Positions 13,707 through 35,843 of a stretch of 64,000 bases of DNA are shown here, piece by piece. Source of the stretch: Dehalococcoidia bacterium (GTDB lineage: Bacteria > Chloroflexota > Dehalococcoidia > Lucifugimonadales > JAGWBF01); the NCBI GenBank assembly GCA_965247055.1, contig CBDFGE010000003.1, forward strand, positions 72,868 to 136,867, read 5' to 3'. The notes beneath the pieces were generated by a model. The model had not been told where the DNA came from and did not search any database. It was given only the letters and a program-made list of their open reading frames with translations. Within the stretch, counting starts at the first letter, position 1. Every line of letters begins with the position of its first letter. A program made the position numbers and the translations under genes.

Positions 13707-13769
13707 GGCAGACCATCTCCTTTCCCCAGCTGCTGGTATCGCCCTTATCTCCCTTCCCCCGCTACCGCC

Positions 13770-14564: not shown

Positions 14565-14628
14565 TGCCCTTGTAGTATGCCACCGGCCCCCTGGGTTACG
14601 CAACGGCCACCGTCCAACAGAGGACTCG

Positions 14629-15810
14629 CTAACGCCGCCTCTTGCGGACTCCCTCCAGCCAGGCAGCCAGCCGCTCCAACGCGGCCCTGATGTTTTCCCG
14701 GGAGTTCGCGTAGGAGAGGCGCACGTAGCCTTCGCCGAACCTGCCAAAAGAAGCCCCCGAGAGCAGAGCGACGCCGGCCTCGCCAAGCGCCCTCTCCTGG
14801 AACTCGTAGCTGGCTATGCCCGTACCCTTGATGCTGGGAAAGACGTAAAAGGCCCCCTCGGGCTCGGGGCAGGCTATGCCTGGAATCTGCCTCAACCCTC
14901 TGGTGATAATCTCCCTCCTCACCCTGAACTCCTCGACCATCTCTACCACGGCGTCCTGCGGGCCCTCCAGTGCCGTCAGTGCCGCCCGCTGGCTGAAGGA
15001 GGCTGCACAGGAGACGCTGTTCACAGCTAGCTTTACTATATGGGGCACTAGAGTCTCCGGGAACACTCCGTACCCCAGCCGCCAGCCGGTCATAGCGTAG
15101 CTCTTGGAGAAGCCGTCGAGGATGATGGTGCGGTCGCCCATGCCAGGGAGGGAGGCTATGCTCTGGTGCTCGCCCTGATAGAGGATGTCCTTGTAGACCT
15201 CGTCGGAGAGCACGTATATATCTTCGCGGCCACGCACCAGTCCCGCGACGGTTTCCAACTCCTCCCTCGTCAGCACGGACCCGGTAGGGTTCCCTGGGGA
15301 GTTGAGGATGATCAGCCTGGTGCGGCGGCTGATTTTGGAGGCCAGGTCTTCCAGGTCGGGGTGGTAGATCTTCTCCTCCAGCAGTCGCATGGGTACCGCC
15401 GTGGCGCCACAGAACCGTATCATGGACTCGTAAATTGGGAAGCCTGGATCGGGGTAGATGATCTCTACCCCCCGCTGGGCCAGGGCGAGGATTGTGAAGA
15501 ACATGATGGGCTTGGCCCCCGGCGTTACCACCACTCGTCCGGGACCCACGGCGGCCCCCCTGGTCTTCTCCACATTCCGGGCGATAGCCTCCCTGAGCTC
15601 GGGCAGCCCCGGAGTGGGGCCATAGTGAGTATAGCCGTCGCGCAGGGCCTCGACGCCGGCTTCAACGACGTGGGCCGGGGTCGCGAAGTCGGGTTCACCT
15701 ATCTCCAGGTGCATCACGTCCCTACCCTGTGCCTCCAGATCCCTCGCCTTCGCCAGCACCTCGAAGGCCGTCTCGGTGCCCAGCTTCAACATCCTGGCGG
15801 CGATGCCCAT
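14629..15810 (-). CDS. Class I/II PLP-dependent aminotransferase (aspartate aminotransferase-like)
   Basis: 393-aa ORF. ...NPGNPTGSVL... and ...LDGFSKSYAMTGWRLGY... give the PLP-lysine context. Confidence 0.9.
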   Translation of the reverse strand: MGIAARMLKLGTETAFEVLAKARDLEAQGRDVMHLEIGEPDFATPAHVVEAGVEALRDGYTHYGPTPGLPELREAIARNVEKTRGAAVGPGRVVVTPGAKPIMFFTILALAQRGVEIIYPDPGFPIYESMIRFCGATAVPMRLLEEKIYHPDLEDLASKISRRTRLIILNSPGNPTGSVLTREELETVAGLVRGREDIYVLSDEVYKDILYQGEHQSIASLPGMGDRTIILDGFSKSYAMTGWRLGYGVFPETLVPHIVKLAVNSVSCAASFSQRAALTALEGPQDAVVEMVEEFRVRREIITRGLRQIPGIACPEPEGAFYVFPSIKGTGIASYEFQERALGEAGVALLSGASFGRFGEGYVRLSYANSRENIRAALERLAAWLEGVRKRRR

Positions 15811-16018
15811 TACTCACCCCCATCCTTCTCCGCCTTTCGTTTTTACCAGAGCGTAAGGAAAAGTGCAAACGCCCGAGGCGCCTGGCCAGTAAATCCTCCG
15901 GGCCGATCTTGTCCTCCGGCGTCCCCTCGGGCCGGGCGCTGAGCCGTCCGTAGATTTGCCCAGGGGACCGTCAGCGACTATAATCCTATTACACAGGCAT
16001 CTGGTGGTGAGGCAACCT

Positions 16019-16384
16019 ATGGACGGCTCCCGCAAAAGGCCTCAGGTAAGGGTAACCGTGTTCGAAAACGAGCCCCTGGCCCTCCTGGCCCAGCAACGCC
16101 TGAGCCAGGAGGGCATACTCTGCGTGGTCCGCTCCCTTGGGGCGGGGCCGGGCGGCTGGGGGGTAGCCACCAACCTCCCCCATGCCATCTACGTCAAGGC
16201 CACCGACGAGATGCGTGCCCGACAGATCCTGGACCTGACACCCAGAGAGATCGCGGAGAGAGAGGGAGTGCCTCCACAGCCGGCTTACCCACTGCCGGTG
16301 ATGGTTGTGGCCTTCAGCATCATAACGGCTGGGGCCCTCATCCTGGGAATTCTCGAGTTGCTGGTGGGGCCGCTGTTTCGCTGA
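16019..16384 (+). CDS. DUF2007-like small protein with C-terminal TM helix
   Basis: The start is taken at MDGSRKRPQVRVTVFENEPLALLAQQRLSQEGI... The fold pattern resembles the putative signal-transducing DUF2007 family, and the tail PVMVVAFSIITAGALILGILELLV is hydrophobic. Confidence 0.45.
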   Translation: MDGSRKRPQVRVTVFENEPLALLAQQRLSQEGILCVVRSLGAGPGGWGVATNLPHAIYVKATDEMRARQILDLTPREIAEREGVPPQPAYPLPVMVVAFSIITAGALILGILELLVGPLFR

Positions 16385-16445
16385 CCGGGTCGCCTGTCCC
16401 AGGGGGCAGGCGCTGCTCCCCGTACACGTCTGGCTTCAGCCTCTA

Positions 16446-17789
16446 TCAGTCCAGGTTACGCTCCAGGACCCTCTGGAAGGCGCCGACGAAGCTGTCCACC
16501 TCCCCTTCTCCCATCGCGTTGGAGACACAGCCGAACAGGTTGGGGGTGAACAGAACCCCCTCGTTCATCATTCCCCAGAACACCCGCTGCCGGAGGCCGG
16601 CGTCCGCCGCCGCCACATCCCTCCAGTCATGGATAGGCGCGTCCACGAAGTGGATGCCGAACATGGACCAGAGGCCCGTGACCTGAAGGGGCACCTCCAG
16701 GCCGGCGCACACCCCCTGAACCCCCCGCCGCAGCCGGTCCGCGAGGGAGTCGAGGCGCTGGTAGACCTGGGGAGTGAGGTGCTCCAGGGTTATGGAACCC
16801 GCCAGCATGGTCATCGGGTTACCGTTAAAGGTGCCGGCATGGGACACCACCGGCCCGTTGGTGGGGTCGAACTGCTCCATCAGGTCACGGCGTCCGCCGA
16901 AGGCCCCCACTGGGAAGCCCCCTCCGATGATCTTGCCGAAGGCGGTCATGTCGGGGGTGATCCCGTAGTACTCCTGGGCGCCCCCGGGGGCCACGCGGAA
17001 GGTGATCACCTCGTCGAAGATGAGGACCACCCCATTCGCCTTGGTGAACTCCCTCAGCATGGCGAGGAACTCCGGTTCGGCCGCCACCATCCCCGATGAC
17101 CCCCCCAGAGCAGGCTCCAGGATCACGGCGGCCAGGTCCCTCGCGTTCTCCTCAAGTATCTCCCGGGCGGCACCCTGGTTGTTGAAGGGGATCACTACCA
17201 CCTGGTCCAGCACCGCGCTGGGCAGTCCGGCGTTGCCGGGCACGGGGGACGGGCGGAGGGGATCGCCTCCCAATTTGGGATCGTGCCGGACGCTCACGGA
17301 CACCGCGTCGTGGGTCCCGTGGTAGCCACCTTCGCACTTGGCGATCTTGGGCCTGCCCGTCAGCGCCCTGGCCGCCCGGATGGCGTTCATGGTGGCCTCG
17401 GTGCCGGAGTTCGTGAACCGGACCAGCTCCACCGACGGCACCCGCTCGCACAGGAGTCTGGCGAGGCGGACCTGGTGCTCGTTGGGAGCGTTGTACACGA
17501 TACCCCTGGCCGCCTGCTCCTGGACGGCGCGGACCACCGGCGGGTAGGCATTGCCGAGGATGAGGCTGGTCATGTTGCCGATGAAGTCCAGCCGGTCGAC
17601 CCCGTCCACGTCCCGGGCATGGCACCCCTCGCCGGAGTCGATGTAGATGGGATAGGGGGCCCAGAAGATACTGTTGCGGGTGTCGCCCCCGGGCATGTAG
17701 CGCCTGGCCTCCTCCCAGATGTCCCGGGACCTGGGCGTCATCTCTATGTAGCGCTCGATCTCGCCGCCGGACTTCCCTGTTGCGGTCAT
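16446..17789 (-). CDS. Class III aminotransferase (glutamate-1-semialdehyde aminomutase-like)
   Basis: 447-aa ORF with ...LIFDEVITFRVAPGGAQEYYGITPDMTAFGKIIGGGFPVGAFGG..., which is typical. Confidence 0.9.
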   Translation of the reverse strand: MTATGKSGGEIERYIEMTPRSRDIWEEARRYMPGGDTRNSIFWAPYPIYIDSGEGCHARDVDGVDRLDFIGNMTSLILGNAYPPVVRAVQEQAARGIVYNAPNEHQVRLARLLCERVPSVELVRFTNSGTEATMNAIRAARALTGRPKIAKCEGGYHGTHDAVSVSVRHDPKLGGDPLRPSPVPGNAGLPSAVLDQVVVIPFNNQGAAREILEENARDLAAVILEPALGGSSGMVAAEPEFLAMLREFTKANGVVLIFDEVITFRVAPGGAQEYYGITPDMTAFGKIIGGGFPVGAFGGRRDLMEQFDPTNGPVVSHAGTFNGNPMTMLAGSITLEHLTPQVYQRLDSLADRLRRGVQGVCAGLEVPLQVTGLWSMFGIHFVDAPIHDWRDVAAADAGLRQRVFWGMMNEGVLFTPNLFGCVSNAMGEGEVDSFVGAFQRVLERNLD

Positions 17790-17882: not shown

Positions 17883-19498
17883 TCAAGGCCCACCGCGGGC
17901 CAGCACCCGGCCGGATGTGTGGCCGGTGAACTGGCCATGCTCCACGCAGACCTCCCCGTTGACCAGGACGTACTCGATTCCCTCGGGGTACTGGCGGGAA
18001 TGCTGGAAGGTTGCCCTGTCTATGACCGTTTTGGGGTCGAATATGACGACGTCGGCGTCGGCTCCGGCGCGGAGCACCCCCTTGCGCTTGAGGCCCAGCT
18101 TCTGCGCGGGGAAGGAGGTCATCTTTCGCACCGCCTCCTCCAGGGTCAGCAGCTTCTCCTCCCGCACGTAGCGTCCCAGGATGCGGGGGTAAGTCCCGTA
18201 GACCCGGGGATGGGGGTTGCCCGGGGATGGGGGTTGCCCGGGGAGTAGAGGCCGTCGGTGCCGATCATGGTGGTGGGGTGGGCCATCACGGTGCGCACGT
18301 CCTCCTCGGACATGGAGAAGGCCACCATGCCGACAGCGCACCTCTCTATCACCAACAGATCGAACACCGCGTCTACCGGGTCCTTTCCGAGGAGCTCTCC
18401 GATCTCCACGATGGTGCGCCCGATAAAAGGCCGGTTGTCGGGGGTCTCCAGCGAGGAGATAAGGATACCGTCAAGCCCGGACCCCATGCGTGTCCCTCCC
18501 GAAGGGTCCAGCAGCTCATCGCGTACCCGCTCCCTGGTGGCGGGGTCCTGGAGGCGTTCTACGACGGCGTCCACGCCCCCTTCCTGCACCCAGGGAGGCA
18601 GAATCGACTGGAGGGTGGTGCTTCTTCCGGCGGGATACGGGTACTGGTCCGCCGTAACGTCCAGGCCCTCCTCCCGGGTGCGCTCCAGCAGCGCCAGGGA
18701 CTCCCGAACCTTGCCATGGTTGGCCCGGCCCGATGCCTTGTGATGAGAGATCTGGACGGACAAGGACGCCCTCCGCCCGATCTCGATGGCCTCCTGGACC
18801 GACTCCAGAAGGTGGTCGCCTTCGTCCCGCATGTGGGTGGCATAGATGCCACCGTAGCGCGAGGCTACCTTCGCCAGCTCCACGATCTCCTCGGTCCCAG
18901 CATAGTTGCCCGGCACATAGACCAGCCCGGTGGAGAGGCCGAAGGCCCCTGCCTTCATCGCCTCCTCCACCAGGCCACCCATCTCCTCCAGCTCATCCGG
19001 GCTGGGCGCGCGCTGCTCGAATCCCATGACGGCGATGCGCACGGTGCCGTGGCCTATGAGGGGGGCCAGGTTGGTGGCCGGACTGGAGTCCCGCACCGCT
19101 TCCAGGTACTCGCCAAAGGTGCGCCACCCCCACGATACGCCGGAGGGAGGGGTGATGAAGGCCAGGTAGCCCTTAAGCATCTCTTCGGTCCTGGGGTTGA
19201 GGGGAGCGGCCGTGAACCCGCAGTTCCCGGAAACCTCGGTTGTGATGCCCTGGCGCAGCTTGTAGTCTTCCACGTCCTTATGCAGGATGGTCAGGTCCGG
19301 GTGAGCGTGCATGTCAATGAAACCGGGGCAGACGCACATATCCTGGGCGTCGATGACCCGTGGGGCGTGGCCCCCTGTGGTTCGCCCCGGTGGGCCCACG
19401 TATTCAACCCGGTCGCCTTCTATAACCACGTCGGCGCGGAACCAGGGATTGCCCGTTCCGTCTATTACCCTTCCGTTGCGTATAGAGATGTGGGCCAC
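17883..19498 (-). pseudogene. D-aminoacylase (N-acyl-D-amino-acid deacylase) disrupted by a 17-bp tandem duplication
   Basis: ORF 18146..19498 (MAHISIRNGRVIDGTGNPW...CPGFIDMHAHPD...) and ORF 17883..18341 (...VYGTYPRILGRYVREEKLLTLEEAVRKMTSFPAQKLGL...) are the N- and C-terminal parts of one amidohydrolase. Removing one copy of the repeat restores ...TDGLYSPGNPHPRVYGTYPRILG... Confidence 0.85.
18203..18236. repeat. Perfect tandem duplication, 2 x 17 bp (CCCGGGGATGGGGGTTG)
   Basis: Read directly: 18203-18219 equals 18220-18236. A third partial copy (CCCGGGGA) starts at 18237. Confidence 0.95.
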
Positions 19499-22684: not shown

Positions 22685-23572
22685 GTGCTAAATAGGCAGA
22701 GCGGGCATATGCAGCGGCGACAGGACGAGACGCCGCAGGACCCGAGGCCAGGAGATAGGGAGCTAACCGTAGATATCCGTGGTCTGGAGAATCTGGGTGT
22801 TGATCCCCAAGTAATCCAGAGGGACATCGCCCAGGTCGTCTCCAAGTACACACAGGTCAGCCAGGCTTCCGTCGAAGAGCGCGACGGGATCGATAGCTCC
22901 GAGGACGAAGAGCGGGACCGGGGTTCCTTCCTGACCATCTTCACTCCGTGGAGATGGTTCCGGCCACGTCGAGCCCGGAGGCGGCGAGGGTGGCCGTCAC
23001 AGCCAGCCCCACATCTACCCCAGGACCTCCCCATAGAAATAGCCGCACCACCTCAACCTGTACTCCAGCAGCCCAAGGACGGGGCTGCACAGCGAGGTGG
23101 GCCCCGTCGGGAAGCCGTCGACAGAACCACGGAGGCAGCCCACTCGCCGTTTGAGGGAGCCCAAGCCGGGCCTATAGGATCGACCCACCTGCCCCAGGTG
23201 TCCTCTCAACAGACCGGCGGCGGGTCGCCGGGAGTGGGCCAGTCCCATGGCGAGTCCTACCAAGAGCCTATGCGCTCCAGCCGGGAGAGGGAGGATAGCC
23301 CTGTGAATCAGGCTCCACCCCGGGCCGGCTCAGGTAACCCGAGCGGTCCGCCCGCCCCTCCGTCAGGCTCAGACCCGGAGCCGGAGGACGAGGATATCCC
23401 CTCCAACTTTATCATAGACCCGGCGACTTTCGAGATGGCGGAGATGAGCGACAAGGCCAGGGATGAGCTGGAGGCGATCCAGCGAGTCAGAGCAAGGGCG
23501 GCGCACGTGAGGATGCGGGCCCAGGAAGCCATGGCGAGGCCCGTTACACCTTCTCAAAAGCCCTGGCCCTGA
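22685..23572 (+). CDS. Hypothetical protein: MinE-like N-terminal segment plus long disordered Pro/Arg/Glu-rich region
   Basis: 295-aa ORF. Residues ~25-70 (RELTVDIRGLENLGVDPQVIQRDIAQVVSKYTQVSQASVEERDG) align by eye with this window's MinE (...RDLLEVVSRYLVVEEESIE...). The rest is low complexity. Confidence 0.5.
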   Translation: MLNRQSGHMQRRQDETPQDPRPGDRELTVDIRGLENLGVDPQVIQRDIAQVVSKYTQVSQASVEERDGIDSSEDEERDRGSFLTIFTPWRWFRPRRARRRRGWPSQPAPHLPQDLPIEIAAPPQPVLQQPKDGAAQRGGPRREAVDRTTEAAHSPFEGAQAGPIGSTHLPQVSSQQTGGGSPGVGQSHGESYQEPMRSSREREDSPVNQAPPRAGSGNPSGPPAPPSGSDPEPEDEDIPSNFIIDPATFEMAEMSDKARDELEAIQRVRARAAHVRMRAQEAMARPVTPSQKPWP

Positions 23573-23601
23573 ATCCCGACGCCCTGAAGGACCTGGCCGC
23601 C

Positions 23602-25242
23602 ATGATTCGCAGGCTGGAAGAGGCCATCAGGACGGAGGGGGAACTCCGGCAGCTGACCCGCCAGCAAGCGGAGGAGGAGGCCGACTGGGCAAGGCAGCGA
23701 GCGACCGAGGCCATCCTTGGCGCGGTAACGGCGGTGCGCAAGGCAAGCAGCCACGTGAGCCGGGAGCTGGAGGAATCCAGGAGTGTCTCTAAGACCGCTG
23801 AATCCCTCAAGGGTTCGGCCCAGGACCACCTGAGCCGCGCCCAGTCCATGAAGGCCGGAGCGGAATCTCTGGTGCGGCAGGAGGCACGCAAACTCCTGGA
23901 GCGGCCTCTCACCGAAGGGTCGGTGCCCCCCTTGCGTGCAACCCGACCGGCCCGACCCATCTCCGAAACGTTGCCACCAGCCCCCGCGAGCAGGACACCC
24001 GCTCCACCTCCCACCGTATCCCCCGGCGTCGATACCTCACAGGCACCACCACTAAGTCCGGTAGCGGAGCCGGCTCCCGCTCAACCCGCTGCCGTGTCCC
24101 CATCCCCCGCCGCTGACACGGGCCAGGCTCTACCACTGCCTCCCGCAAGGGAACCGGCCGCCACTCCACCCCCCACCATGTCCCAGGGCGTCGATGCCGG
24201 GCAGACCCCTACCACTCCTCTACCGAGGGAGCCGGGCCGGGGAGATGACCAGCCGGTGGGACCAGTGTCGGATAGGCTTAACAGTGAGGAACAGACACCA
24301 GCGCGGCGGGATAAGGCAGACATAGAGTCCCCCGTTGACCTGGCAGCGGCCCTCAACGAGTTCCTGAACTCGTTGGAGAGGTCCGAGCCGGCCCCCCTCG
24401 TAGAACAGGCTCCCACGGAACAGGCTCCAACCGTTGCAGCGCCTCGCGAAGGTCTGTTCCTGGACAACCTGGACTTTTCGAGCGCAGAACTCGAGGTCAC
24501 TCAGGAGCAGATGCCCAGGGACGAGGAGGTGAGGCCCGGTCGCGATGTGGAAGCTCCCGCGCCACCGCCCAGCCCGCGGCGACAGGATACCGAGACGGCC
24601 GAGGAAGAGTTCAACGACGATCTGCTGTCGCAGCTCAGAGATTCCCTGGCCAGCATACGGACACCGGGGCAGCCCTTGAACCTTTCGCCCACGGATATCA
24701 TGGAGGAACTCCCAGTCTCCAGTCCGCCTGCTCGCGCACAGGGTACCGCTGGCGCCGCAGCGCAATTCGAGGCTCCCCCTGCAGTAGACCAGCTTCGGAC
24801 CTCGCCACCTACGCGGCAGAGTCCAGAAGACCTGGGGCATGGCTTGACCGGGGGGCGGCAGGCGTCCACTCCACCCGTGTCCCCTCCGATGCCTTCCATC
24901 GACCAGCCACCGCCCTTGCCCGAGCCGGCACCGCGGGTCCCCGAGTCCGCCCAGTCGGCACCCCTCGCGCCAAGCTACAAGGGCACCCTCCACATCGTGT
25001 TCGCACCTGCGGCCGACGCGGCTACCCTATCCTTCTTCTGGGACATTGTGGACACCGTAGCTGGGGTCGGCAAGGTGGTAGCGCAGACATCCCTTCCTGA
25101 CGGCTCGGGGCATGAGTTCACACTGGACCTGGGCAACGACCCCCTGGACCTAGAGCAGCTGAGAACGCGTATTCCCGGGGCAGACATCATGGCCCTGGGC
25201 CCGGACCGGCTGCGCATACACCTTGCGCCGATGGCCGACTAG
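23602..25242 (+). CDS. Hypothetical protein: N-terminal coiled coil, long Pro-rich middle, small globular C-terminal domain
   Basis: 546-aa ORF. The N-terminus is MIRRLEEAIRTEGELRQLTRQQAEEEADW... and the C-terminus is ...YKGTLHIVFAPAADAATLSFFWDIVDTVAGVGKVV... No family was recognised. Confidence 0.55.
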   Translation: MIRRLEEAIRTEGELRQLTRQQAEEEADWARQRATEAILGAVTAVRKASSHVSRELEESRSVSKTAESLKGSAQDHLSRAQSMKAGAESLVRQEARKLLERPLTEGSVPPLRATRPARPISETLPPAPASRTPAPPPTVSPGVDTSQAPPLSPVAEPAPAQPAAVSPSPAADTGQALPLPPAREPAATPPPTMSQGVDAGQTPTTPLPREPGRGDDQPVGPVSDRLNSEEQTPARRDKADIESPVDLAAALNEFLNSLERSEPAPLVEQAPTEQAPTVAAPREGLFLDNLDFSSAELEVTQEQMPRDEEVRPGRDVEAPAPPPSPRRQDTETAEEEFNDDLLSQLRDSLASIRTPGQPLNLSPTDIMEELPVSSPPARAQGTAGAAAQFEAPPAVDQLRTSPPTRQSPEDLGHGLTGGRQASTPPVSPPMPSIDQPPPLPEPAPRVPESAQSAPLAPSYKGTLHIVFAPAADAATLSFFWDIVDTVAGVGKVVAQTSLPDGSGHEFTLDLGNDPLDLEQLRTRIPGADIMALGPDRLRIHLAPMAD

Positions 25243-25280: not shown

Positions 25281-25952
25281 CTACTGGCTGTAGCTGTCTT
25301 GGATGTAACCCAGCACCGCCGCCACCCTGGGATGAACGCGGTCGGTCTGGGCGACGTTTAGCTCCTGATAGATGGCGTTGATATAGTTTTCAACCGACTT
25401 GTGCCCGAGCACCAGTTTCTCCGCTATCCCGGCGTTGTTATACCCCTGGGCCATCAGTGCCAGTACCTCAAGCTGTCGAGGGGTCAGCCGTGAAGCGAAG
25501 GAGCCCTGGCGGGGCCTGAGACCGGTCACCACCGCCGGGTCCATGACCACGAACCCGGCGGCGGAGCCTTCGATAGCTCTGCCCAGCGCCGCAGCATCGC
25601 CAACCGACTGCTTCAGCAGATAGGACCACCCGGAGGCCTCCTCCGCCGACAGACTGCTGATATACTCCTTGTCTTTGTGCAGCGAGAGGATGACTATTCA
25701 GATCTGAGGAAATTCGTTTCGTATCATGCGACCCGCTTCTATGCCGTTGGGCTCGCTGCCCAACTCAATGTCCATGAGCACCACGTTGGGCTGTATCTCC
25801 TTGACCATGTGAATCGCTTCGTTGCCGCTGCCTACGGCACCCACAACCCTGAGATTAGGGAATGAAGAGAGGGCTATCTTCAGCATGTCGCGAAAAAGGC
25901 CTTCGTCCTCGACGATTATGACGTCAATCATATCTTCGTTCCACTGTGTCAT
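25281..25952 (-). pseudogene. NarL/FixJ-type response regulator (REC + LuxR HTH) interrupted by an in-frame TGA at 25698-25700
   Basis: The interval is 672 nt, or 224 codons, in one frame. It reads MTQWNEDMIDVIIVEDEGLFRDML...VVLMDIELG...NEFPQI*IVILSLHKDKEYISSL...LTPRQLEVLALMAQGYNNAGIAEKLVLGHKSVENYINAIYQEL... The ORF track shows it as two ORFs (25698..25952 and 25281..25550). Confidence 0.85.
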
Positions 25953-26450: not shown

Positions 26451-27050
26451 ATGGCCAATCTGACTACCAAATTTAGCAGCATGATACCCAAGAAATTGGG
26501 GGACCCACGGGGCATCACCGGCCTGGAGACGGCCATCGTCCTGATCGCCTTCGTGGTGGTCTCCTCTGTGTTCGCCTTCGCCGCACTGTCCACCGGCCTC
26601 TTCTCCAGCGACAAATCGAAGGAGGCCATCATCGCCGGCCTGGGCGAGGCCAGCGGCACCCTGGAGGTCCGCGGCTCCATAGTAGCCAAGACCAACAGCA
26701 CCGGCGACGTCATCGACGAGCTCGTGGTTCAGGTCGCTAACGCCGCAGGCGGCGCCGCTGTCAACCTGATCCCAGGCAAGACCATCATCACCTACACCGA
26801 CTCGAACCAGATGGTCACCCTGGTAAGCGGCGACTTCACCACCATAGGGCTGGGGGCCGCCGACTCCGACAAGCTGGTCGAGCCGGGTGAGATGTATGAG
26901 ATAAAGCTCACCGGCCTGCAGGCCAAGCTCAATCCGGACCTCAAGGCCGACCAGATTTTCACCATTGAGCTGAAGCCCCCGCTGGGAGCCGTTGTTCGCG
27001 TGCAGCGCACCACCCCGGTCACTCTGGACACCGTCATGGACCTTAACTAG
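26451..27050 (+). CDS. arlB: Archaellin (archaeal-type flagellin) with class III signal peptide, copy 1
   Basis: MANLTTKFSSMIPKKLGDPRG|ITGLETAIVLIAFVVVSSVFAFAALSTGLFSSDKSKE... This is a short basic leader ending in RG followed by the archaellin hydrophobic N-terminus. GGAGG lies ~10 nt upstream of the ATG at 26451. The upstream part of track ORF 26139.. is judged non-coding. Confidence 0.9.
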   Translation: MANLTTKFSSMIPKKLGDPRGITGLETAIVLIAFVVVSSVFAFAALSTGLFSSDKSKEAIIAGLGEASGTLEVRGSIVAKTNSTGDVIDELVVQVANAAGGAAVNLIPGKTIITYTDSNQMVTLVSGDFTTIGLGAADSDKLVEPGEMYEIKLTGLQAKLNPDLKADQIFTIELKPPLGAVVRVQRTTPVTLDTVMDLN

Positions 27051-27103
27051 CCATGACACAGAACCGTCCAACGACAAGAGCAAATCTATCCGGAGGGAAC
27101 AAC

Positions 27104-27679
27104 ATGAGAAACATGACAAAAGTGTGGAGTGACCGTAGGGGCATAACCGGACTGGAGACGGCCATCGTGCTGATCGCCTTCGTGGTGGTCTCCTCGGTGT
27201 TCGCCTTCGCCGCACTGTCCACCGGCCTCTTCTCCAGCGACAAGTCCAAGGAGACCATCAACGCCGGCCTCACCGAGGCCAGCGGCACCCTGGAGATTCG
27301 GGGCTCCATTATCGCCAAGGCCAACAGCACCGGTGACGCCATAGACGAGATCTGGTTTCAGGTCGCCAACGCCGCCGGCGGAGGGGCCGTGGACCTGACC
27401 CCGGGTGAGACCCTGATCACCTATGCGGATGCGGACCAGGCGATCACCCTGGTAAGCGGTGACTTCACCGTCACCGGCCTGGGCAGCGCCGACTCCGACA
27501 AGCTGGTCGAGCCCGGCGAGATGTATGAGGTAAAGATCGCCAACATGGTCTCCAAGCTGAACCCCGACCTGACCAGCGATATACCGTTCGTGGTCTCGAT
27601 CAAACCCCCCGTGGGAGCGGTGGTAACCATCGCTCGCAGGACCCCGGTCTCCATGAACAAGATCATGGACCTGAACTAA
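27104..27679 (+). CDS. arlB: Archaellin with class III signal peptide, copy 2 (tandem paralogue)
   Basis: MRNMTKVWSDRRG|ITGLETAIVLIAFVVVSSVFAFAALSTGLFSSDKSKE... The first ~37 mature residues are identical to copy 1 and the rest is roughly two-thirds identical by eye. GGAGGG lies upstream of the ATG at 27104. Confidence 0.9.
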   Translation: MRNMTKVWSDRRGITGLETAIVLIAFVVVSSVFAFAALSTGLFSSDKSKETINAGLTEASGTLEIRGSIIAKANSTGDAIDEIWFQVANAAGGGAVDLTPGETLITYADADQAITLVSGDFTVTGLGSADSDKLVEPGEMYEVKIANMVSKLNPDLTSDIPFVVSIKPPVGAVVTIARRTPVSMNKIMDLN

Positions 27680-27833: not shown

Positions 27834-29468
27834 GTGCCAAGCTCGGACAAGCGCCTAGAAGTCCTGGAAGACGAGCTGAAATTGCTGAAGGGGGAGGTGA
27901 AACGGACTCTGGTTGACCTGAGGGCCTTCGTTATGCGAGAGGACTCCCCTCTCAACGACCGCCTGACCATGGGCCCCGCTCCGGCGCCCGTTGCCCAGGA
28001 AAGGAACGCTGCGGCAGACCCCCGAATGGCGGTCATGGAAGAGGAGCTGAGGGTCCTCAGGCAGCAAAAGGCGGAACCTTCCGATCCAACCCCCTCCGCA
28101 CCACCTTCCAACCATGGTGACATTGCCATGGCGATGCTCCAGGACCAGCTGAAAGCTCAGTCCACATCGCCTACGGGCCAGAACGACAAGGCTATGGACA
28201 TCCTCCAGGAACAGCTGAAAGCCCAGATGTCAGAGAGGGCGAACTTCATTCCCAATGCCCAGACGCCTCCTCAGGGCGATCCCCCTCAGACGGCCCAGGT
28301 CGCCACCGAATCCAGGCCCGCCGTGCAGGAGACGTCAAGCCCTTCTTCCCAGAGCCATGAGAACACGGTGGAACAGGACCCACCTAAAGAGCAGCTACGC
28401 CGGCGTACCCAGCCGGACGCAGAGGAGCGCCGCCGGCCGGAAGACGACCAGCGTCCACCCAAAGAGGTCCGGACGCGCAGGCGGAAGAGCGACTATCCCC
28501 ATGACGGCTCTACCAACGGCCGGCCCCAGGAGTATGCCGAAGAGGCCTATCCCGACGAACCGCGGCGGGAGGGGGCCGAGACCGACTACTTTGACCCTTC
28601 TGAAAGGGGGCGCTACCAAGAGATGAGAGCTCAGAGTCCCTACGAGAGCAACGGCAACGGGCACCACCGGGACTACGCGTACATCGAAGAGGAGTATTAC
28701 CCCGACGCTCCGCCGGAGGATGTGGGACCACCGCGGGAGGCTGGGAAGGGTAGGGACACCCTCGACGTCAACATGATCAGCAACCTGGTGCGCTGGGCCA
28801 TTCAGGCGAAACGGCGGGTGGGTCACGATAGGCTCATGGATCTGCTGGAGCTGTACCTGTGCTCCGGCCACCATTCCAGGGAGCTGAAAGAGATCATAAG
28901 CTACATCTGCAACGTCGTGGAAGAGGAGCCGCTGGACTACGAGCCCGACCCCGCCCACGAGAGTGTGGACCTCATACACCAGCTGCACGGCATCCTGTTC
29001 AGTGCGGTGCTGGGCACTACCTCCGCCCAGGGCTCCTCGCTAACGGAGGCAGCGGACATGCGCATCGGCCAGGTAACGGGTGCCCTGTCCATAGGCTCCA
29101 CCTCAGCCATCGACTCAGGAAACGGCACCAACATTACGGTCACGGGAGATAACACGGGGGCTATGTCTTACGGCAATTTCTCGCAGGTGGACGTGCTGAC
29201 CAAATACACCGATACGACTGGTGACCAGGTCGCAAAGCGCCTGGCCTACGTCTGCAAGCAGCTCTGCGGCGACCCGGGAGACCCCGGGGACAACCAGTGG
29301 ACTATTACCGGCATCAACCCGGACTCTTACAATCCCAAGATGTGGGACCCCGACGAGACCTTGACCATCGTACTGCGGGTCGCGCCCAAAGTGAAGACCG
29401 GGACCTCGGGGACGGCCGCCGTGGGCGCTCCCGGCGGGGTCTCCGACTCGGCATATTTCAAGAACTGA
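27834..29468 (+). CDS. Archaellum accessory protein: coiled coil + charged low-complexity linker + ArlD/E-like segment + ArlF/G-like beta-rich C-terminus (apparent fusion)
   Basis: 544-aa ORF with a GTG start after GGGAGG. ...DVNMISNLVRWAIQAKRRVGHDRLMDLLELYLCSGHHSRELKEII... resembles the conserved FlaD/E domain as I recall it. The C-terminus ...GNGTNITVTGDNTGAMSYGNFSQVDVL...NPKMWDPDETLTIVLRV... resembles FlaF/FlaG soluble domains. The domain calls need HMM confirmation. Confidence 0.6.
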   Translation: MPSSDKRLEVLEDELKLLKGEVKRTLVDLRAFVMREDSPLNDRLTMGPAPAPVAQERNAAADPRMAVMEEELRVLRQQKAEPSDPTPSAPPSNHGDIAMAMLQDQLKAQSTSPTGQNDKAMDILQEQLKAQMSERANFIPNAQTPPQGDPPQTAQVATESRPAVQETSSPSSQSHENTVEQDPPKEQLRRRTQPDAEERRRPEDDQRPPKEVRTRRRKSDYPHDGSTNGRPQEYAEEAYPDEPRREGAETDYFDPSERGRYQEMRAQSPYESNGNGHHRDYAYIEEEYYPDAPPEDVGPPREAGKGRDTLDVNMISNLVRWAIQAKRRVGHDRLMDLLELYLCSGHHSRELKEIISYICNVVEEEPLDYEPDPAHESVDLIHQLHGILFSAVLGTTSAQGSSLTEAADMRIGQVTGALSIGSTSAIDSGNGTNITVTGDNTGAMSYGNFSQVDVLTKYTDTTGDQVAKRLAYVCKQLCGDPGDPGDNQWTITGINPDSYNPKMWDPDETLTIVLRVAPKVKTGTSGTAAVGAPGGVSDSAYFKN

Positions 29469-29578: not shown

Positions 29579-30295
29579 ATGACCACCTCATTTCCACAGG
29601 CGGCGACCGTTATTTCCACGGGCAGCGGGGAGATAGACAAGAAGCTGGGCGGCGGCATACCGATAGGCTCGCTCTCTCTTATAGAAGGGCAGTCCGACGC
29701 GGGCAAGAGCGTCCTGTCCCAACACCTGGCCTTCGGCGCCCTCAACTCCGATGTGGGCGTCGCCTACTACTCCACCGAGAACACCGTCAAGAGTCTTCTC
29801 ACCCAGATGGCTTCCCTCAGTCTGGAGGTAACCGACCACTTCCTGGTAGACCGGCTGCGCATCTATCCCTTGCAGATTTCCAGCAAGGAGGCCGACGCGA
29901 AGGCCCTGTTCAACCTGCTGGCAACCCACATAGAGCGCCTTCCCGAGACCTTCAAGGTCATCATAGTGGACTCGGTGACCAACATCGTTACCCACAGCCA
30001 GGCGGACACCATCATAGACTTCTTTCTCGCCTGCAAGGAGGCCTGCGACGATGGCAGGACCGTGTTTATGGTAGTCCACTCCTACGCCTTCGACGAGGGT
30101 ATGCTGATCCGGGTCCGCTCCCTGTGCGACGCCCACGTGAGGCTGAGGCTGGAGGAAGTGGGAGAGCGACTGGTCAAGATCATGGAGGTGAGCAAGGTAC
30201 GCAACGCCGAGCGAAGCACCGGTAACATCATCAGCTTCGACGTCGAGCCCGGGATGGGCATGAAGATTATCCCGATAATCAAGGCGAAAGCGTAG
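29579..30295 (+). CDS. arlH: ArlH/FlaH, KaiC/RecA-like ATP-binding archaellum protein
   Basis: 238-aa ORF: ...ISTGSGEIDKKLGGGIPIGSLSLIEGQSDAGKSVLSQHL... (Walker A) and ...FKVIIVDSVTN... (Walker B-like). Size and position before the ArlI ATPase fit ArlH. Confidence 0.85.
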   Translation: MTTSFPQAATVISTGSGEIDKKLGGGIPIGSLSLIEGQSDAGKSVLSQHLAFGALNSDVGVAYYSTENTVKSLLTQMASLSLEVTDHFLVDRLRIYPLQISSKEADAKALFNLLATHIERLPETFKVIIVDSVTNIVTHSQADTIIDFFLACKEACDDGRTVFMVVHSYAFDEGMLIRVRSLCDAHVRLRLEEVGERLVKIMEVSKVRNAERSTGNIISFDVEPGMGMKIIPIIKAKA

Positions 30296-32038
30296 GTGGT
30301 AGCTCAGACCGTACCCTTCAAGACAGAACAGGCGGACCACAACCACAACGGCACCGACTCCAAGTGTCCCGTGTTCCGCATGCTTCCCAAGAAGCTGCGG
30401 CCCGAGGCCAAGGAGAAGCCGCACCTGTGGGAGTACCTCCACGGCTTGCCGCTGGAGAAGATAGGCGTACCCAAGTACCACGAGACACTGGACCGGTCCA
30501 TGGGAGACTGGAAGAGCCCGAACCTCATATATCCGGTGGGCAATGGGATGTTTATTCATATCTTGCCTGACCCCAGGGATGCCAGGAACTTCTATATCGC
30601 CATCGAGCCGGGCATGGGCCAGGACCTATCCTCCCAGTTGGACGAGGTGGAGACCAGGCTGGTGGACTACGTGGGCGACCTGGAGAGCTCCGAAGAGGAC
30701 GGGGCCAAGCGCACCCAGCTGCTGCTAACGAGCCTGGACAAGGTGTGCACCGTCCGCAAGAGCGCGGGGAAGGCTCCCAAAAAACGCAAGAAGGGAGGAG
30801 CTAAGGACTCCGACGGCAAGGGCAAGGTGGTCCTTAGCCCCCAAGAGATGACGACTCTTCGTTACCTGATGGTCAGGGACAAAGAGGGGATGGGGCCCCT
30901 TGACCCGCTAATCCACGACATATACATCGAGGATATCAGCTGTAGCGGCCTTGGGGAGATGTTCGTTGAGCACAAGATCTTCAAGGGCCTCAAGGCCAGC
31001 GTCACCTTCCGCACCCATGAGGAGCTGGATACCTTCGTCATACGGCTGTCGGAGAAGATAGGGAAGCCGGTGACCTTCCGCGATCCCATCGTCGATGCCA
31101 CCCTTCCCGACGGCTCCCGTATAAACATCGTCTTCGGAGGCGACCTGTCCAAACGGGGCAGCAACTTCACCATTCGTAAGTTCGCCTCCACCCCCATGAG
31201 CATCCTTCAGCTCGTCGGGTTCAAGACCCTCTCCTACGAGATGGCGGCCTATCTCTCCCTGGCGCTGGTACACGGAATGAACATGTTCGTCTCCGGCGAA
31301 ACTGCGTCGGGCAAGACCACCCTGATGAACGCGCTTACCACCTTCATTGTCCCGACGGGCAAGATCGTAAGCAGAGAGGACACCGCCGAGCTGCAGGTGC
31401 CCCATCGCAACTGGATCCGAGAGATAGTACGGGGCAGCAGCAAGTCCACCTCCGACTCGGCGGTCACCATGTTCGATCTCCTCAAGGCGGCCCTGAGGCA
31501 GCGGCCCAACGAGATCATAATAGGCGAAATTCGGGGCGAAGAAGGGGCCATCGCCTTCCAGGCCATGCAGACGGGCCACGCCGCCATGGCTACTTTCCAC
31601 GCCGCGTCGGTGGAGAAGCTAATCCAGAGGCTCACGGGCAATCCGATCAACATCCCCAAGACCTACGTGGACAACCTCAACCTGGTATGTATACAGAGCA
31701 TGGTCCGGCTCCCCGACGGTAGAGAGGGGAGGCGGGTAATGAGCATCAACGAGATCGTGGGCTACGACTCCTCCAGCGACTCCTTCTCCTTCATCGAGGT
31801 GTTCAGGTGGAACCCCGTCGACGATTCCTTTGAGTTCAGCGGCTACATGAACAGCTACCTCCTGGAGGAACGGATCGCCATGATGATGGGCATCCCCCCG
31901 ACGAAGAAAAGGACCATCTACAACGAGCTGACCCGAAGGGCGAACATTCTGAAAAAACTTCACGAGCAGAAGGTTGAAGATTTCTATGAGCTCCACCAAG
32001 TCCTCGCCCAAGCATACGCAGAGGGTGTCTTCCGATAG
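30296..32038 (+). CDS. arlI: ArlI/FlaI, archaellum motor/assembly ATPase (type II/IV secretion ATPase superfamily)
   Basis: 580-aa ORF with Walker A SGETASGKTT, then ...RQRPNEIIIGEIRGEEGAIAFQAMQTGHAAMATFHA... (Asp/His boxes). The N-terminal domain ...NLIYPVGNGMFIHILPDPRDARNFYIAIEPGM... is typical of FlaI. The GTG start directly follows the arlH stop, and the ATG at 30380 is an alternative start. Confidence 0.9.
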   Translation: MVAQTVPFKTEQADHNHNGTDSKCPVFRMLPKKLRPEAKEKPHLWEYLHGLPLEKIGVPKYHETLDRSMGDWKSPNLIYPVGNGMFIHILPDPRDARNFYIAIEPGMGQDLSSQLDEVETRLVDYVGDLESSEEDGAKRTQLLLTSLDKVCTVRKSAGKAPKKRKKGGAKDSDGKGKVVLSPQEMTTLRYLMVRDKEGMGPLDPLIHDIYIEDISCSGLGEMFVEHKIFKGLKASVTFRTHEELDTFVIRLSEKIGKPVTFRDPIVDATLPDGSRINIVFGGDLSKRGSNFTIRKFASTPMSILQLVGFKTLSYEMAAYLSLALVHGMNMFVSGETASGKTTLMNALTTFIVPTGKIVSREDTAELQVPHRNWIREIVRGSSKSTSDSAVTMFDLLKAALRQRPNEIIIGEIRGEEGAIAFQAMQTGHAAMATFHAASVEKLIQRLTGNPINIPKTYVDNLNLVCIQSMVRLPDGREGRRVMSINEIVGYDSSSDSFSFIEVFRWNPVDDSFEFSGYMNSYLLEERIAMMMGIPPTKKRTIYNELTRRANILKKLHEQKVEDFYELHQVLAQAYAEGVFR

Positions 32039-33473
32039 CGCCGTACTGAGCTTCGACCTATTCTCGAATCTCACGTACATGTCGGCACTCTCTACCGGGG
32101 AAGTGCCGCGGGATGTTATCTTCCAGCACGCAATAGCACAGCCCTACAAGACGGCCAGCTACTTCGAACAGGTATACTTGCTGACCAAGCGGCTGGGGTT
32201 CGAGTACAGCCGCAGCTTCCAGCTTGTCTCCAGGAAGGCGGGAGCCGCGACTGTAAAAAGCCTGCTGCTCCGATTCGCCGGCTCCATATCCTCCGGCGAA
32301 TCGGAGCACGAGTTCCTGGCCCAGGAAGCAAGGGTGGAGCGAGAGCAGTATATTAACGAGTACCAGAGGAGCCTGGAGACCCTACAGAAGTGGGGGGACG
32401 CCTATGCGGCCCTGATGGTGTCCACCTCCCTGATCGTGGTGGTGTCCATGATCTCCACCATGCTGTACGACATCGGCAATACTTTCGTCTTCATGCTCAC
32501 TGGGACCATGTTCTTCATGTCCTTTTTTGGCGCCTGGATCATAAAAAAGACGGCGCCCTACGAGGTGACGACCTACAAGAACCGCAAAGGACCCAAAGAA
32601 CGCCGGAGGGCCGTGCAGCTCATGCTCGTGCTGGGTCCCCCGGGGCTACTAATGGGCCTGTACCTGGCCGTCGCCGGGAACCTGGGACTGGGCTTCCTTG
32701 CACTCGGCATCAGCATTCTGTCGGCGGGTCTCTACGCCTACATGGACGATCTCAAGGTATCCAGTGTGGACCAGGAGCTGGCCAAGTTCCTTCGCTCTCT
32801 GGGAAGCGTGACCGAGTCCCTGGGAACAACCCTCACCAAGGCCATGACCAAAATAGACCGGCGCTCCCTGGGCAACCTTGAGCCATACATCCAGAGACTG
32901 CAATCTCGTCTGGCCAGCCAGCTTAGCCCCAAACTCTGCTGGGACAGGTTTATGGACGAGACGGGCAGTGAGCTGGTGCACCGCTCCACGAGAATGTTCG
33001 TGGACGGGGCCGCCCTGGGGGGGAGCCCAGAACGGGTGGGACGCATCGCCTCGGACTACGCTATGAGCATCGCGTTGCTCCGTGCCAAGCGTCACGTAAC
33101 GGCCTTGCCCTTTGCCTACCTGTGCGTACCCCTTCACGGGGCCATGAGCGCCCTCCTGATATTCGTGCTCGAGATCATGACATCATTTAGCACCAGGCTG
33201 GGGGACGCCAACGATGAGCTGGCAACCCAGGGAGCCGGCCTAGCTGCGCAGATACCCGACCTCCCCATGTTCCAGTCCAGGGACATGCAACAAACGGCCA
33301 TGCTCACCCTTGGCGCCGTTATGGTCCTTACGCTAACAAACGCCATGGCCGCCAAGTTCGCCACCGGGGGGCACGCCCTGAAATTGCTGTTTTACGGCAG
33401 CATCATGTTGACCGTCTCGGGGATCAACCTTACCCTGATCCCGCCGGTCGCCCAGGGGCTGCTGACCAGATGA
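31986..33473 (+). CDS. arlJ: ArlJ/FlaJ, polytopic archaellum platform protein (T2SS-F-like)
   Basis: ...FDLFSNLTYMSALSTGEVPRDVIFQHAI... followed by multiple TM helices and a duplicated T2SSF-like architecture. The start was chosen at ATG 31986 (the track uses TTG 31974). It overlaps the arlI 3' end by ~53 nt. Confidence 0.85.
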   Translation: MSSTKSSPKHTQRVSSDSAVLSFDLFSNLTYMSALSTGEVPRDVIFQHAIAQPYKTASYFEQVYLLTKRLGFEYSRSFQLVSRKAGAATVKSLLLRFAGSISSGESEHEFLAQEARVEREQYINEYQRSLETLQKWGDAYAALMVSTSLIVVVSMISTMLYDIGNTFVFMLTGTMFFMSFFGAWIIKKTAPYEVTTYKNRKGPKERRRAVQLMLVLGPPGLLMGLYLAVAGNLGLGFLALGISILSAGLYAYMDDLKVSSVDQELAKFLRSLGSVTESLGTTLTKAMTKIDRRSLGNLEPYIQRLQSRLASQLSPKLCWDRFMDETGSELVHRSTRMFVDGAALGGSPERVGRIASDYAMSIALLRAKRHVTALPFAYLCVPLHGAMSALLIFVLEIMTSFSTRLGDANDELATQGAGLAAQIPDLPMFQSRDMQQTAMLTLGAVMVLTLTNAMAAKFATGGHALKLLFYGSIMLTVSGINLTLIPPVAQGLLTR

Positions 33474-33545: not shown

Positions 33546-34001
33546 ATGGCGTTTCTAAGTAAGTTGAAGAAGCAGAAGGACCCGCTGGAAGGCTTGATCG
33601 ACGACGAAGACTCCATGGAATGGGACTCGCCCTCGGATTCCGAACCGGAGCCCGAGGCGCCCAGCGCAAAGGCCGGTTTCAAAGTAGCAAGCATCAAGCT
33701 GAAACAGCCTGCCGATGATGAAGAGGAAGAAGAAGAAGAGGAGGATGGGGAAGATAGATCCCCAGGGGACGAAGAGGAACCTGACGACGAGGACACCCAG
33801 ACCGGCTCCTCGGAAGAACGGCTGGAGGGCACGAAGGGAGACGAGGCCACCTCCATCGGTAACTCTCTACTGAACATCTTCGAAGAGGAGGAGGTGGTGG
33901 ACCAGCGCCTCGAAAGCCTCAACTCCTGGGTGGAGGACGTGGATGCGGAGGAGTTGGTGGGGGAGCTGAACGCCCTCATGGAAGAGCTGGAGAGGATCTA
34001 G
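33546..34001 (+). CDS. Highly acidic hypothetical protein, last gene of the arl cluster
   Basis: 151-aa ORF on the same strand, 72 nt after arlJ. It has a long Asp/Glu run (...DDEEEEEEEEDGEDRSPGDEEEPDDED...) and a helical C-terminus ...LLNIFEEEEVVDQRLESLNSWVEDVDAEELVGELNALMEELERI. Confidence 0.6.
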   Translation: MAFLSKLKKQKDPLEGLIDDEDSMEWDSPSDSEPEPEAPSAKAGFKVASIKLKQPADDEEEEEEEEDGEDRSPGDEEEPDDEDTQTGSSEERLEGTKGDEATSIGNSLLNIFEEEEVVDQRLESLNSWVEDVDAEELVGELNALMEELERI

Positions 34002-34271: not shown

Positions 34272-35843
34272 TTGCTGGACCTGCTGATAGCGGGCGGCCT
34301 CATCGTGGACGGCACCGGGAGTCCGGGCTTCTACGGGGCCGTGGGGATAGATGGAGACACGACGCGGATAATCCGGGGCGACACCTCCCTGGTGGAGACG
34401 GCCCGGGCAATAGACGCCACTGGTAAAGTAGTGTGCCCCGGCTTCGTGGACCTACACGCCCACTCGGGGCTGGTCATACTGGCTGAACCCCGCCACGAGC
34501 CCAAGGTGCGCCAGGGAGTCACCACGGAGCTCATAGGCGTCGACGGCAACTCCTACGCGCCCTTCCCCTCCCACGAAGACTTCCTCCGCTTCGTGGAGGT
34601 CAACTCGGGGCTGGACGGCTCCCCTACCCTCCCTGGCCAGTGGTCCACGGTGGCGGAGTACCTGTCCATGTTCGACGGCCGGGTGGCTGTTAACATAGCA
34701 TATGTCATCGGCAACTCCCCCCTGCGTATCTCCGCCGTGGGCTGGGACGACAGGCCCGTCTCGGGCCCCGAGATGGAGAACATGAAGGCGATACTACGAG
34801 AGGGAATGGAGGAGGGGGCCTACGGCATATCGACGGGACTGGACTACCCGCCGGGCAGCTACGCCGACACGGCGGAGCTGGTGGAGCTGAGCCGCGAGGC
34901 CCAGCTCCTGGGCGGCATCTACCATACCCACGTTCGCTATGGTTTGGGCGACCGGCTGCTGGACCCGTTCAGGGAGGCCATCGACATCGGGAAGCGGAGC
35001 GGCATTCCCTGCCACCTCACCCACCTCTACCAGCGGACTCCCAACCCCCGGCGGGCGCTGCTGGACCTGGTGGAGGAGGCCCGGGGCGAGGGGCTGGATG
35101 TGACCTTCGACTGCTACCCGTATATCTACAGCAGCACCCGGCTCCTCATAAACTTCCCCCAGTGGGCCCACGACGGCGGGCCTGAAAGGTTGAAGGAGGT
35201 GCTGCGCTCCCCTGAAGGCAGAGAGCGCCTCAGGCGGGACGTCGCCCCCCGGGGCATCTCCTGGGACCAGATGTGGCTCACCTACTTCAAGCGGCCCCAC
35301 AATCGCCAGTACGAGGGCCGCTCCATCGCCGAGGTCGCCCAGGCCATGGGCAAAGGCGAGCTGGACGCCATGTGCGACCTGCTGCTGGAGGAGGACCTGC
35401 AGACGTCCTACGTGGCGGCTCGGGCCGACGGGGACACCCTTCCCGAGTACGTCGCCCACCCGCTGTCCATGGTGGGCACCGACGGGCTGCTGATCGGCGA
35501 CTACCCTAGCCCCCGTACATACGGCTCCTTCCCGCTGATCCTCTCCCTGATCGTCCGCGAGGGCCGCTTCATGTCCCTCGCGGACGCCATCCGCAAGATG
35601 ACCTCCTTCCCGGCCCAGCGGCTGGGAATACCGGACCGGGGCATCCTGAGGGACGGCATGAGGGCGGACATCGTGGTTTTCGACTCCCGTACCATCGGCA
35701 CTCCGGCCACCCGGGAGGACCCCAGGCAGTTCCCCACGGGCGTGGAGTACGTAGTCGTAAACGGGCAGGTAGTCATCGACCAGGGCCGGCACACCGGTGC
35801 GCTGCCGGGCCGGGCCCTCCGCCGTGGACGGGGCTCCACGTAA
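34272..35843 (+). CDS. D-aminoacylase (N-acyl-D-amino-acid deacylase), intact paralogue
   Basis: 523-aa ORF with a TTG start. ...CPGFVDLHAHSG... and ...MVGTDGLLIGDYPSPRTYGSFPLILS...IRKMTSFPAQRLGIPDRG... are collinear with the disrupted copy at 17883-19498. Confidence 0.9.
   Translation: MLDLLIAGGLIVDGTGSPGFYGAVGIDGDTTRIIRGDTSLVETARAIDATGKVVCPGFVDLHAHSGLVILAEPRHEPKVRQGVTTELIGVDGNSYAPFPSHEDFLRFVEVNSGLDGSPTLPGQWSTVAEYLSMFDGRVAVNIAYVIGNSPLRISAVGWDDRPVSGPEMENMKAILREGMEEGAYGISTGLDYPPGSYADTAELVELSREAQLLGGIYHTHVRYGLGDRLLDPFREAIDIGKRSGIPCHLTHLYQRTPNPRRALLDLVEEARGEGLDVTFDCYPYIYSSTRLLINFPQWAHDGGPERLKEVLRSPEGRERLRRDVAPRGISWDQMWLTYFKRPHNRQYEGRSIAEVAQAMGKGELDAMCDLLLEEDLQTSYVAARADGDTLPEYVAHPLSMVGTDGLLIGDYPSPRTYGSFPLILSLIVREGRFMSLADAIRKMTSFPAQRLGIPDRGILRDGMRADIVVFDSRTIGTPATREDPRQFPTGVEYVVVNGQVVIDQGRHTGALPGRALRRGRGST

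Follow-up and report, generated by a model that had tools for sequence, protein, structure and literature searches.

What is the single open reading frame (ORF) that lies between the archaellin genes and arlH in an archaellum cluster of a Dehalococcoidia bacterium, and does it represent a new type of motor protein? The ORF is found in a stretch of 64,000 nucleotides (nt) of this genome (NCBI GenBank assembly GCA_965247055.1, contig CBDFGE010000003.1, positions 72,868 to 136,867 of the forward strand), the whole of which we call the window and number from its first letter. An initial annotation, made from the sequence alone, proposed that the ORF fuses ArlC/D/E-like and ArlF/G-like modules and that it is the most likely place for a lineage-specific stator innovation suited to a bacterial envelope. 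The first proposal holds in large part, with residues 1-388 corresponding to the protein found at the ArlCDE position of Chloroflexota clusters, which we name X, and residues 389-544 to ArlF. The second finds no support, as the fusion is unique to the window and relatives keep arlG and arlF with membrane helices. The ORF is likely a chimera created by one in-frame deletion of ~0.76 kb in a standard Chloroflexota arl2-type cluster, and the motility locus is likely broken.

A Single ORF Joining Two Archaellum Proteins

The cluster in the window consists of two arlB copies, the ORF of 544 amino acids (aa), arlH, arlI, and arlJ, with MinC, MinD, and MinE encoded upstream (Table 1), in DNA with a G+C content of 58-69%. 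The ORF was verified at 27834..29468 on the plus strand, with a GTG start, the sequence GGGAGG 7 nt 5' of it, and a TGA stop at 29466-29468, and it is the only ORF between arlB2 and arlH, as had been stated. In an AlphaFold2 model of the full ORF, residues 2-36 form an N-terminal helix with a pLDDT score (predicted local distance difference test) of ~90. This is followed by a mostly disordered linker of ~270 residues (~38-307) with three short helices, of which 54% are P/E/R/D/Q/Y, and by a conserved helical domain at residues 308-388 (pLDDT >90), with the confidently folded four-helix unit spanning residues 312-394. The long charged low-complexity linker was therefore correctly recognized, as were its two copies of LQ[DE]QLKAQ (residues 102-109 and 124-131). 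The ArlF part was modeled with low confidence; the alignment held no homologs for it. Within the X family, residues 1-37 (LKGEVKRTLVDLRA) are the best-conserved part and linker length is highly variable.

The C-terminus had been described as resembling FlaF or FlaG, and its ~156 residues can be assigned firmly, by sequence comparison, to ArlF specifically. Query residues 387-544 align with residues ~20-177 of a separate 176-177-aa protein in related loci, with identities of 63% (locus L001), 58% (L002), and 65% (L017). Among solved structures, the profile of this 176-aa family matches FlaF best (4p94, E 7.7e-4), and that of the adjoining 155-157-aa family matches FlaG best (5tug, E 4.9e-6). 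The published order arlG-arlF in Chloroflexota agrees with this assignment of the two families (PMC12488501). PF01917 matches the ArlF part of the window at E 0.018 (profile positions 24-161) and its orthologs at 3e-6 to 7e-5. Every residue that is invariant in the ArlF family is kept in the window copy, and the subclade to which it belongs carries an extra CxxxC-containing insertion (YVCKQLCGDPGDPG), which, we speculate, may require an oxidising extracytoplasmic environment.

What the window copy lacks, according to the family alignment, is the first ~21 residues, which form the hydrophobic N-terminal helix. The maximum Kyte-Doolittle score over 19 residues is 1.11 in the 544-aa ORF vs. 2.4-2.9 in intact ArlF and ArlG, leaving it without any hydrophobic segment of transmembrane grade. 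Both the missing anchor helix and the presence of only one F/G-like domain had been noted earlier, and both are borne out. ArlF is thus not encoded as its own gene beside arlG here; it is fused to X, and a tblastn search with a 157-aa ArlG found no match anywhere in the window.

The Junction and the Related Loci

Related loci were collected by scanning one genome per GTDB species, together with L001 and L002, and 12 of them span the region. Each of the 12 encodes arlB (one or more copies), X, arlG, arlF, arlH, arlI, and arlJ as separate genes, so that the fusion, whose conservation in orthologous loci had been suggested as a check, is not conserved. In these loci X measures 370-908 aa, ArlG ~155 aa, and ArlF ~172-177 aa, and both ArlG and ArlF carry intact membrane helices. 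In L001 and L002, X (398-408 aa) precedes two separate genes, one of 157 aa and one of 176-177 aa, after which come arlH, arlI, and arlJ; L002 shares wider synteny with the window, from MinCDE through a downstream amidohydrolase. ArlH, ArlI, and ArlJ of the window are 69-79% identical to those of loci in Dehalococcoidia/SAR202-type metagenome-assembled genomes (MAGs). Because the related loci all come from Chloroflexota, Dehalococcoidia, or SAR202 MAGs, the window holds one of the bacterial archaellum clusters, namely a Chloroflexota cluster of the arl2 type, a class described between 2023 and 2025.

Codon-level comparison with L001 and L002 places the breakpoint at nt 28997/28998 (...CAC GGC ATC CTG / TTC AGT GCG GTG...), with the flanks ...GGCATCCTG / TTCAGTGCG...; a MAFFT DNA alignment across the deletion misplaced its 3' side. 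A normal X runs through ...HGIL into TGGxPV and a short tail, and in a normal ArlF the F at position 22 is preceded by ~21 hydrophobic residues. The segment missing from the window measures 762 bp by comparison with L002 and 768 bp by comparison with L001, both multiples of 3, and 672-689 bp by comparison with remoter loci. It takes in the tail of X, the entire arlG, and arlF up to about codon 21.

The fusion is found in one sequence only. An ArlF domain is present in 1 of 206 X-family proteins, a set that includes 50%-identity cluster representatives from ~15 billion proteins, and that one (P0001) is the window's own. No other fused copy was found among these 206 representatives, 17 genome loci, and two metagenome scans, and the junction was not found in Joint Genome Institute (JGI) metagenome contigs, either as exact DNA or as a degenerate back-translation.

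The N-Terminal Half and the ArlC/D/E Question

Besides the query, 29 homologs were found among 5.8 billion proteins; each aligns with query residues 1 to ~392 alone and terminates there. Residues 1-388 represent X minus its last ~15-25 residues: the window copy stops at ...HQLHGIL, and the tail, TGGxPV plus ~10-20 aa, is absent. All residues that are invariant in the X family are kept.

Whether X is related to the archaeal ArlC/D/E proteins is harder to determine. The Chloroflexota gene at this position has been called an arlCDE homologue (PMC12488501), and ArlC/D/E proteins are cytoplasmic and have no transmembrane segments (PMC8978795). X likewise lies between arlB and arlG/arlF and has no transmembrane helix, as expected for this class. 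Searches of Pfam and NCBIfam gave no FlaC or FlaD/E match for the ORF, its pieces, or 72 family members (26 + 46), and PF04659 did not match the window protein, its domain alone, or the same 26 + 46 family members at E-values up to 1-10. Profile comparisons provide more of a signal. We assembled a test set of 15 archaeal arl proteins from loci retrieved with the sequence of the solved Methanocaldococcus jannaschii FlaH, in which FlaC (PF05377) and FlaD/E (PF04659) proteins are represented by Methanococcus voltae, Thermococcus, and an Archaeoglobus-like contig. When this set was searched unfiltered with a profile of the X C-terminal domain, the four PF04659 proteins were all matched (per-sequence p 7e-8 to 8e-5) and the remaining 11 were not, and the alignment falls on the FlaD/E core. 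The resemblance is located at residues ~318-370, where hhalign gave a probability of 56% (E 1.1e-4, 47-54 columns) with a profile of either 18 or 188 sequences.

Additional searches were less informative. The X C-terminal domain returned only same-family matches or noise in a word-indexed profile search and in a search of PDB sequences, and an exhaustive hidden Markov model (HMM) search with it recovered 392 relatives, none of them annotated. Foldseek comparison of the full model with the PDB, which holds no ArlD/E structure, returned only generic helical bundles (best E 1.2). The FlaD/E-like segment that had been proposed therefore stands at the level of profile comparison, with moderate support, but not at that of Pfam or NCBIfam matches. 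For the N-terminal coil, the helix is present but its proposed likeness to ArlC is not reflected in any specific signal between its profile and archaeal FlaC proteins, in which the coiled-coil region ends in the motif YEVVS..NPF. Overall, these comparisons lend moderate support to X being a divergent ArlD/E-like cytoplasmic protein, which agrees with the literature label and lies outside the Pfam family definition.

Three observations on the distribution of these proteins can be added. Two archaeal, Methanomassiliicoccales-like loci (L024 4142-5101 and L025 4173-5072) fill the arlCDE slot with a single PF05377 protein of ~300 aa and have two small genes after it, which is the Chloroflexota layout; we considered these proteins as direct orthologs of X and rejected them, as their C-termini do not match the X-domain profile. 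In a Methanoperedens locus (L021), that slot lacks an arlCDE gene altogether. Some X-family proteins (P0006, 610 aa; P0009, 590 aa; P0029, 650 aa) contain an adenylate/guanylate cyclase domain (PF00211). In P0006 and P0009, local BLAST matched both the N-terminal coil and the FlaD/E-like C-terminal domain, which places the cyclase between them, and in P0029 it matched the N-terminal coil only. These cyclase-bearing proteins hint at a link between cyclic-nucleotide signaling and the bacterial archaellum scaffold.

Probable Loss of the Stator and Alternative Explanations

A single deletion in a cluster ordered arlB-X-arlG-arlF-arlH-arlI-arlJ would have taken ~15-25 codons from the end of X, the complete arlG, and the start of arlF, where ~21 codons encode most of its membrane helix. 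In archaella, ArlG forms a stalk outside the membrane that is capped by an ArlG-ArlF complex, and ArlF binds the cell envelope; both proteins are extracytoplasmic, and both assembly and rotation require them (PMC8978795; PMC13319060). X would be a cytoplasmic, remotely ArlD/E-like scaffold. As the chimera has neither a signal peptide nor a membrane helix, its ArlF beta-sandwich should remain in the cytoplasm rather than cap the ArlG stalk outside the membrane, and with ArlF held there and ArlG gone the stator has most likely been lost. The archaellum would then fail to assemble or rotate unless other arlG and arlF copies lie outside the window. The X part, short only of its tail, may still fold.

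Several points weigh against this interpretation. The deletion is in frame and all family-invariant residues are kept in both halves, although an in-frame result is expected by chance for one third of deletions. In a relative-rate comparison the branch share of the window ArlF is 0.23-0.36 vs. 0.25-0.40 for ArlB, ArlH, ArlI, and ArlJ. Because the ArlF branch is not accelerated, there is no positive sign of relaxed selection, and the deletion is either recent relative to species-level divergences or its parts are still constrained. The genes arlB, arlH, arlI, and arlJ are intact. Finally, the presence of the deletion in the organism is read from the assembled sequence, and intact arlG and arlF copies may exist elsewhere in a genome of which the window covers only 64 kb.

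The last two points each lead to an alternative. The first is that X, arlG, and arlF are really separate and that the gap stems from misassembly, a minority structural variant, or a sequencing or consensus error in the MAG, which might perhaps also account for the nearby nonsense codons. This would fit with the fusion being known from one sequence and with the unusually many broken genes in the window, and the split X or arlB ORFs in related MAG loci could themselves be assembly errors. However, the junction is clean and in frame, and no extended similarity between the X tail and the arlF start that could collapse an assembly was seen in relatives, albeit without a repeat search. The other lesions in the window, a 17-bp tandem duplication and TGA and TAG substitutions, are not the homopolymer indels typical of long-read error, and the insertion sequence (IS) insertions in related clusters show that decay is genuine in this group. 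We therefore consider an artefact unlikely.

The second is that the deletion is real and that arlG and arlF paralogs elsewhere keep the archaellum working, with the chimera still serving as X. Duplications of arlF are reported in some Chloroflexota (PMC12488501), the genes arlB, arlH, arlI, and arlJ are intact, and the X part is short only of its tail. Nonetheless, no extra arlG or arlF copies were found within the examined flanks of the 12 related loci, and none is present in the 64-kb window, while the nonsense mutation in the neighboring response regulator argues for disuse. A stator supplied in trans is thus quite improbable. A selected ArlD/E-ArlF fusion that anchors or braces the motor without ArlG in a bacterial envelope is highly improbable: the in-frame junction, the invariant residues of both halves, the unaccelerated rate, and the intact remainder of the cluster would suit it, but the in-frame outcome has a one-in-three chance of arising anyway, the fusion occurs in no other genome, the closest Chloroflexota keep separate arlG and arlF genes with membrane helices, a fusion without an export signal would put the ArlF domain on the wrong side of the membrane, its stalk-forming partner ArlG is absent from the window, and the neighboring regulator is truncated.

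The Surrounding Cluster and Other Broken Genes

The chimera, probably left by a deletion, is not the only damaged gene in the window. The features of the archaellum region are collected in Table 1.

Table 1. Features of the archaellum region, in window coordinates.
Feature	Position	Strand	Basis or remark
NarL-type response regulator (Response_reg + GerE), TGA at 25698-25700	25284..25952	-	Comparison with related loci
Archaellin ArlB1	26451..27050	+	PF01917, E 6e-21
Archaellin ArlB2	27053..27679	+	PF01917, E 3e-23
Chimeric 544-aa ORF	27834..29468	+	X residues 1-388 in frame with ArlF residues ~22-177
N-terminal conserved helix/coiled coil of X, residues 1-37	27834..27944	+	Family alignment, AlphaFold2
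Disordered charged/Pro-rich linker, residues 38-307	27945..28754	+	AlphaFold2, composition
Conserved four-helix C-terminal domain of X, residues 308-388	28755..28997	+	Family profile, AlphaFold2
Probable deletion junction	28997..28998	+	Codon-level comparison with L001 and L002
ArlF soluble beta-sandwich part, residues 389-544	28998..29465	+	Homology to separate ArlF genes
ArlH, KaiC-like, intact	29579..30295	+	NCBIfam FlaH NF004723, E 1e-82
ArlI ATPase, intact	30296..32038	+	T2SSE, E 6e-37
ArlJ platform protein, intact	31974..33473	+	T2SSF
Acidic small protein after arlJ	33546..34001	+	Conserved in several Chloroflexota clusters

A NarL-type regulator, conserved in L001, L002, L003, and L017, is encoded divergently upstream of arlB and may regulate the arl operon. 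In the window an in-frame TGA replaces a conserved Gly at its codon 85, so that the product ends after ~84 residues and has no DNA-binding domain. Reading of TGA as Gly, or other recoding, was considered and rejected, since TGA and TAG end 24 and 26, respectively, of the 57 genes in the window; both are ordinary stops here, and the TGA of the 544-aa ORF stands at the same position as in its orthologs. Elsewhere in the window, a 17-bp tandem duplication (CCCGGGGATGGGGGTTG twice, around 18195-18230) has shifted the frame of a paralog (17889-19498, minus strand) of the amidohydrolase gene at 34272-35843, and a luciferase-like monooxygenase (PF00296; 62982-63908, plus strand) is interrupted by an in-frame TAG at 63267-63269, which leaves two ORFs. 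IS copies are frequent in the second half of the window (41638-42591, 43315-44531, 48742-49775, 50020-51231, and 59488-60700). They comprise one IS5/DDE_Tnp_1, two IS3-type elements, one of which has a shortened integrase ORF, and two Mutator-family transposases, of which one is frameshifted; several of the IS elements are intact.

Damage is also seen in related clusters. In L001, arlJ is split by a DDE transposase (13149-16622) and X is truncated by an insertion of ~190 bp before its last helix (9197-9400); two ORFs stand in place of an undivided X in L008, L013, and L014, and L006, L014, and L017 have a split arlB. The regulator nonsense codon, the other broken genes, and the IS copies of the window are consistent with recent decay of its motility locus.

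Two features of the surroundings deserve mention in their own right. Directly 3' of arlJ, several Chloroflexota archaellum clusters encode a small protein that is very acidic and has a conserved C-terminus of ~45 residues; it is found in L001 (16716-17162), L002 (14466-15077), L004, L006, and L007 as well as in the window. It has no match in Pfam or NCBIfam and may be an undescribed accessory component. Additionally, the plus strand between minE and the response regulator (22685-25242) carries two long ORFs of low complexity (295 and 546 aa) that are rich in Pro/Ala/Glu, and the C-terminal ~200 residues of the 546-aa ORF are shared with L001 (3761-4357) and with the C-terminus of a 767-aa protein in L002.

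Significance of the Locus

The value of this analysis is mainly that of a correction, with a seemingly new stator architecture turning out, in all likelihood, to be a deletion scar in one genome. It would be wrong to annotate or count the 544-aa ORF as a new type of archaellum protein, or the locus as a complete cluster. A complete arl2 cluster has intact arlB, arlCDE or arlX, arlG, arlF, arlH, arlI, and arlJ; the window has arlB (two copies), arlH, arlI, and arlJ intact, but no arlG, and its arlF is a truncated, fused copy. The locus is a further sign of frequent decay among the archaellum loci that Dehalococcoidia/SAR202-type Chloroflexota acquired horizontally. It has also drawn attention to the arlCDE-position protein of these bacteria as a large family, counting 392 or more cluster representatives, with no Pfam annotation and a remote likeness to FlaD/E. 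If the source strain is available, it would be a natural mutant that is arlG-null and in which ArlF is mislocalised. There is only a very slim chance that the chimera is expressed and selected, either as a cytoplasmic brace for an ArlG-free bacterial archaellum or as an Ig-like module repurposed on the cytoplasmic ring; were this the case, it would be the first fusion in nature to join cytoplasmic with extracytoplasmic components of an archaellum motor.

Comparison With Known Systems

The FlaF/FlaG stator of Sulfolobus acidocaldarius (PDB 4p94, 4zbh, 5tug, and 6pbk) is the structural reference for the C-terminal half, the 156 residues of which belong to the ArlF family. The separate orthologs match PF01917, whereas the window copy has lost its N-terminal membrane helix and its ArlG partner, and its subclade carries the CxxxC insertion.

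The euryarchaeal ArlC/D/E proteins, including the fusions ArlCE, ArlDE, and ArlCDE (PF05377 and PF04659), occupy the same operon position as X and, like X, are cytoplasmic, have no transmembrane helix, and begin with a coiled coil. The C-terminal domain of X is weakly similar by profile to their FlaD/E core (W..[LF]...VG...L..L.[LY]Y..G). Unlike them, X has a long disordered linker and no match to PF04659 or PF05377 at the Pfam level. CheF, the partner of archaeal ArlCDE, is reported to be absent from Chloroflexota (preprint 10.64898/2026.05.11.724246). Fusions among cytoplasmic archaellum partners are common in archaea (PMC8978795). In contrast to ArlCE, ArlDE, and ArlCDE, however, the fusion in the window combines a cytoplasmic with an extracytoplasmic protein, an architecture not known from nature.

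The closest known systems are the arl2 clusters of Chloroflexota (Sivabalasarma et al., 2025, Nat Microbiol, PMC12488501) and the SAR202 clusters (Lim et al., 2023), with which the window shares gene set and order, including the arlB copies, the arlCDE-position gene, arlH, arlI, and arlJ, in a bacterial context with MinCDE. It differs from the published clusters and from the 12 related loci in having no arlG and in an arlF that lacks its N-terminal part and is joined to the arlCDE-position gene. Overall, this is a system of a known kind, a Chloroflexota arl2 cluster, in which a one-off deletion has most likely created a chimeric gene and removed arlG.

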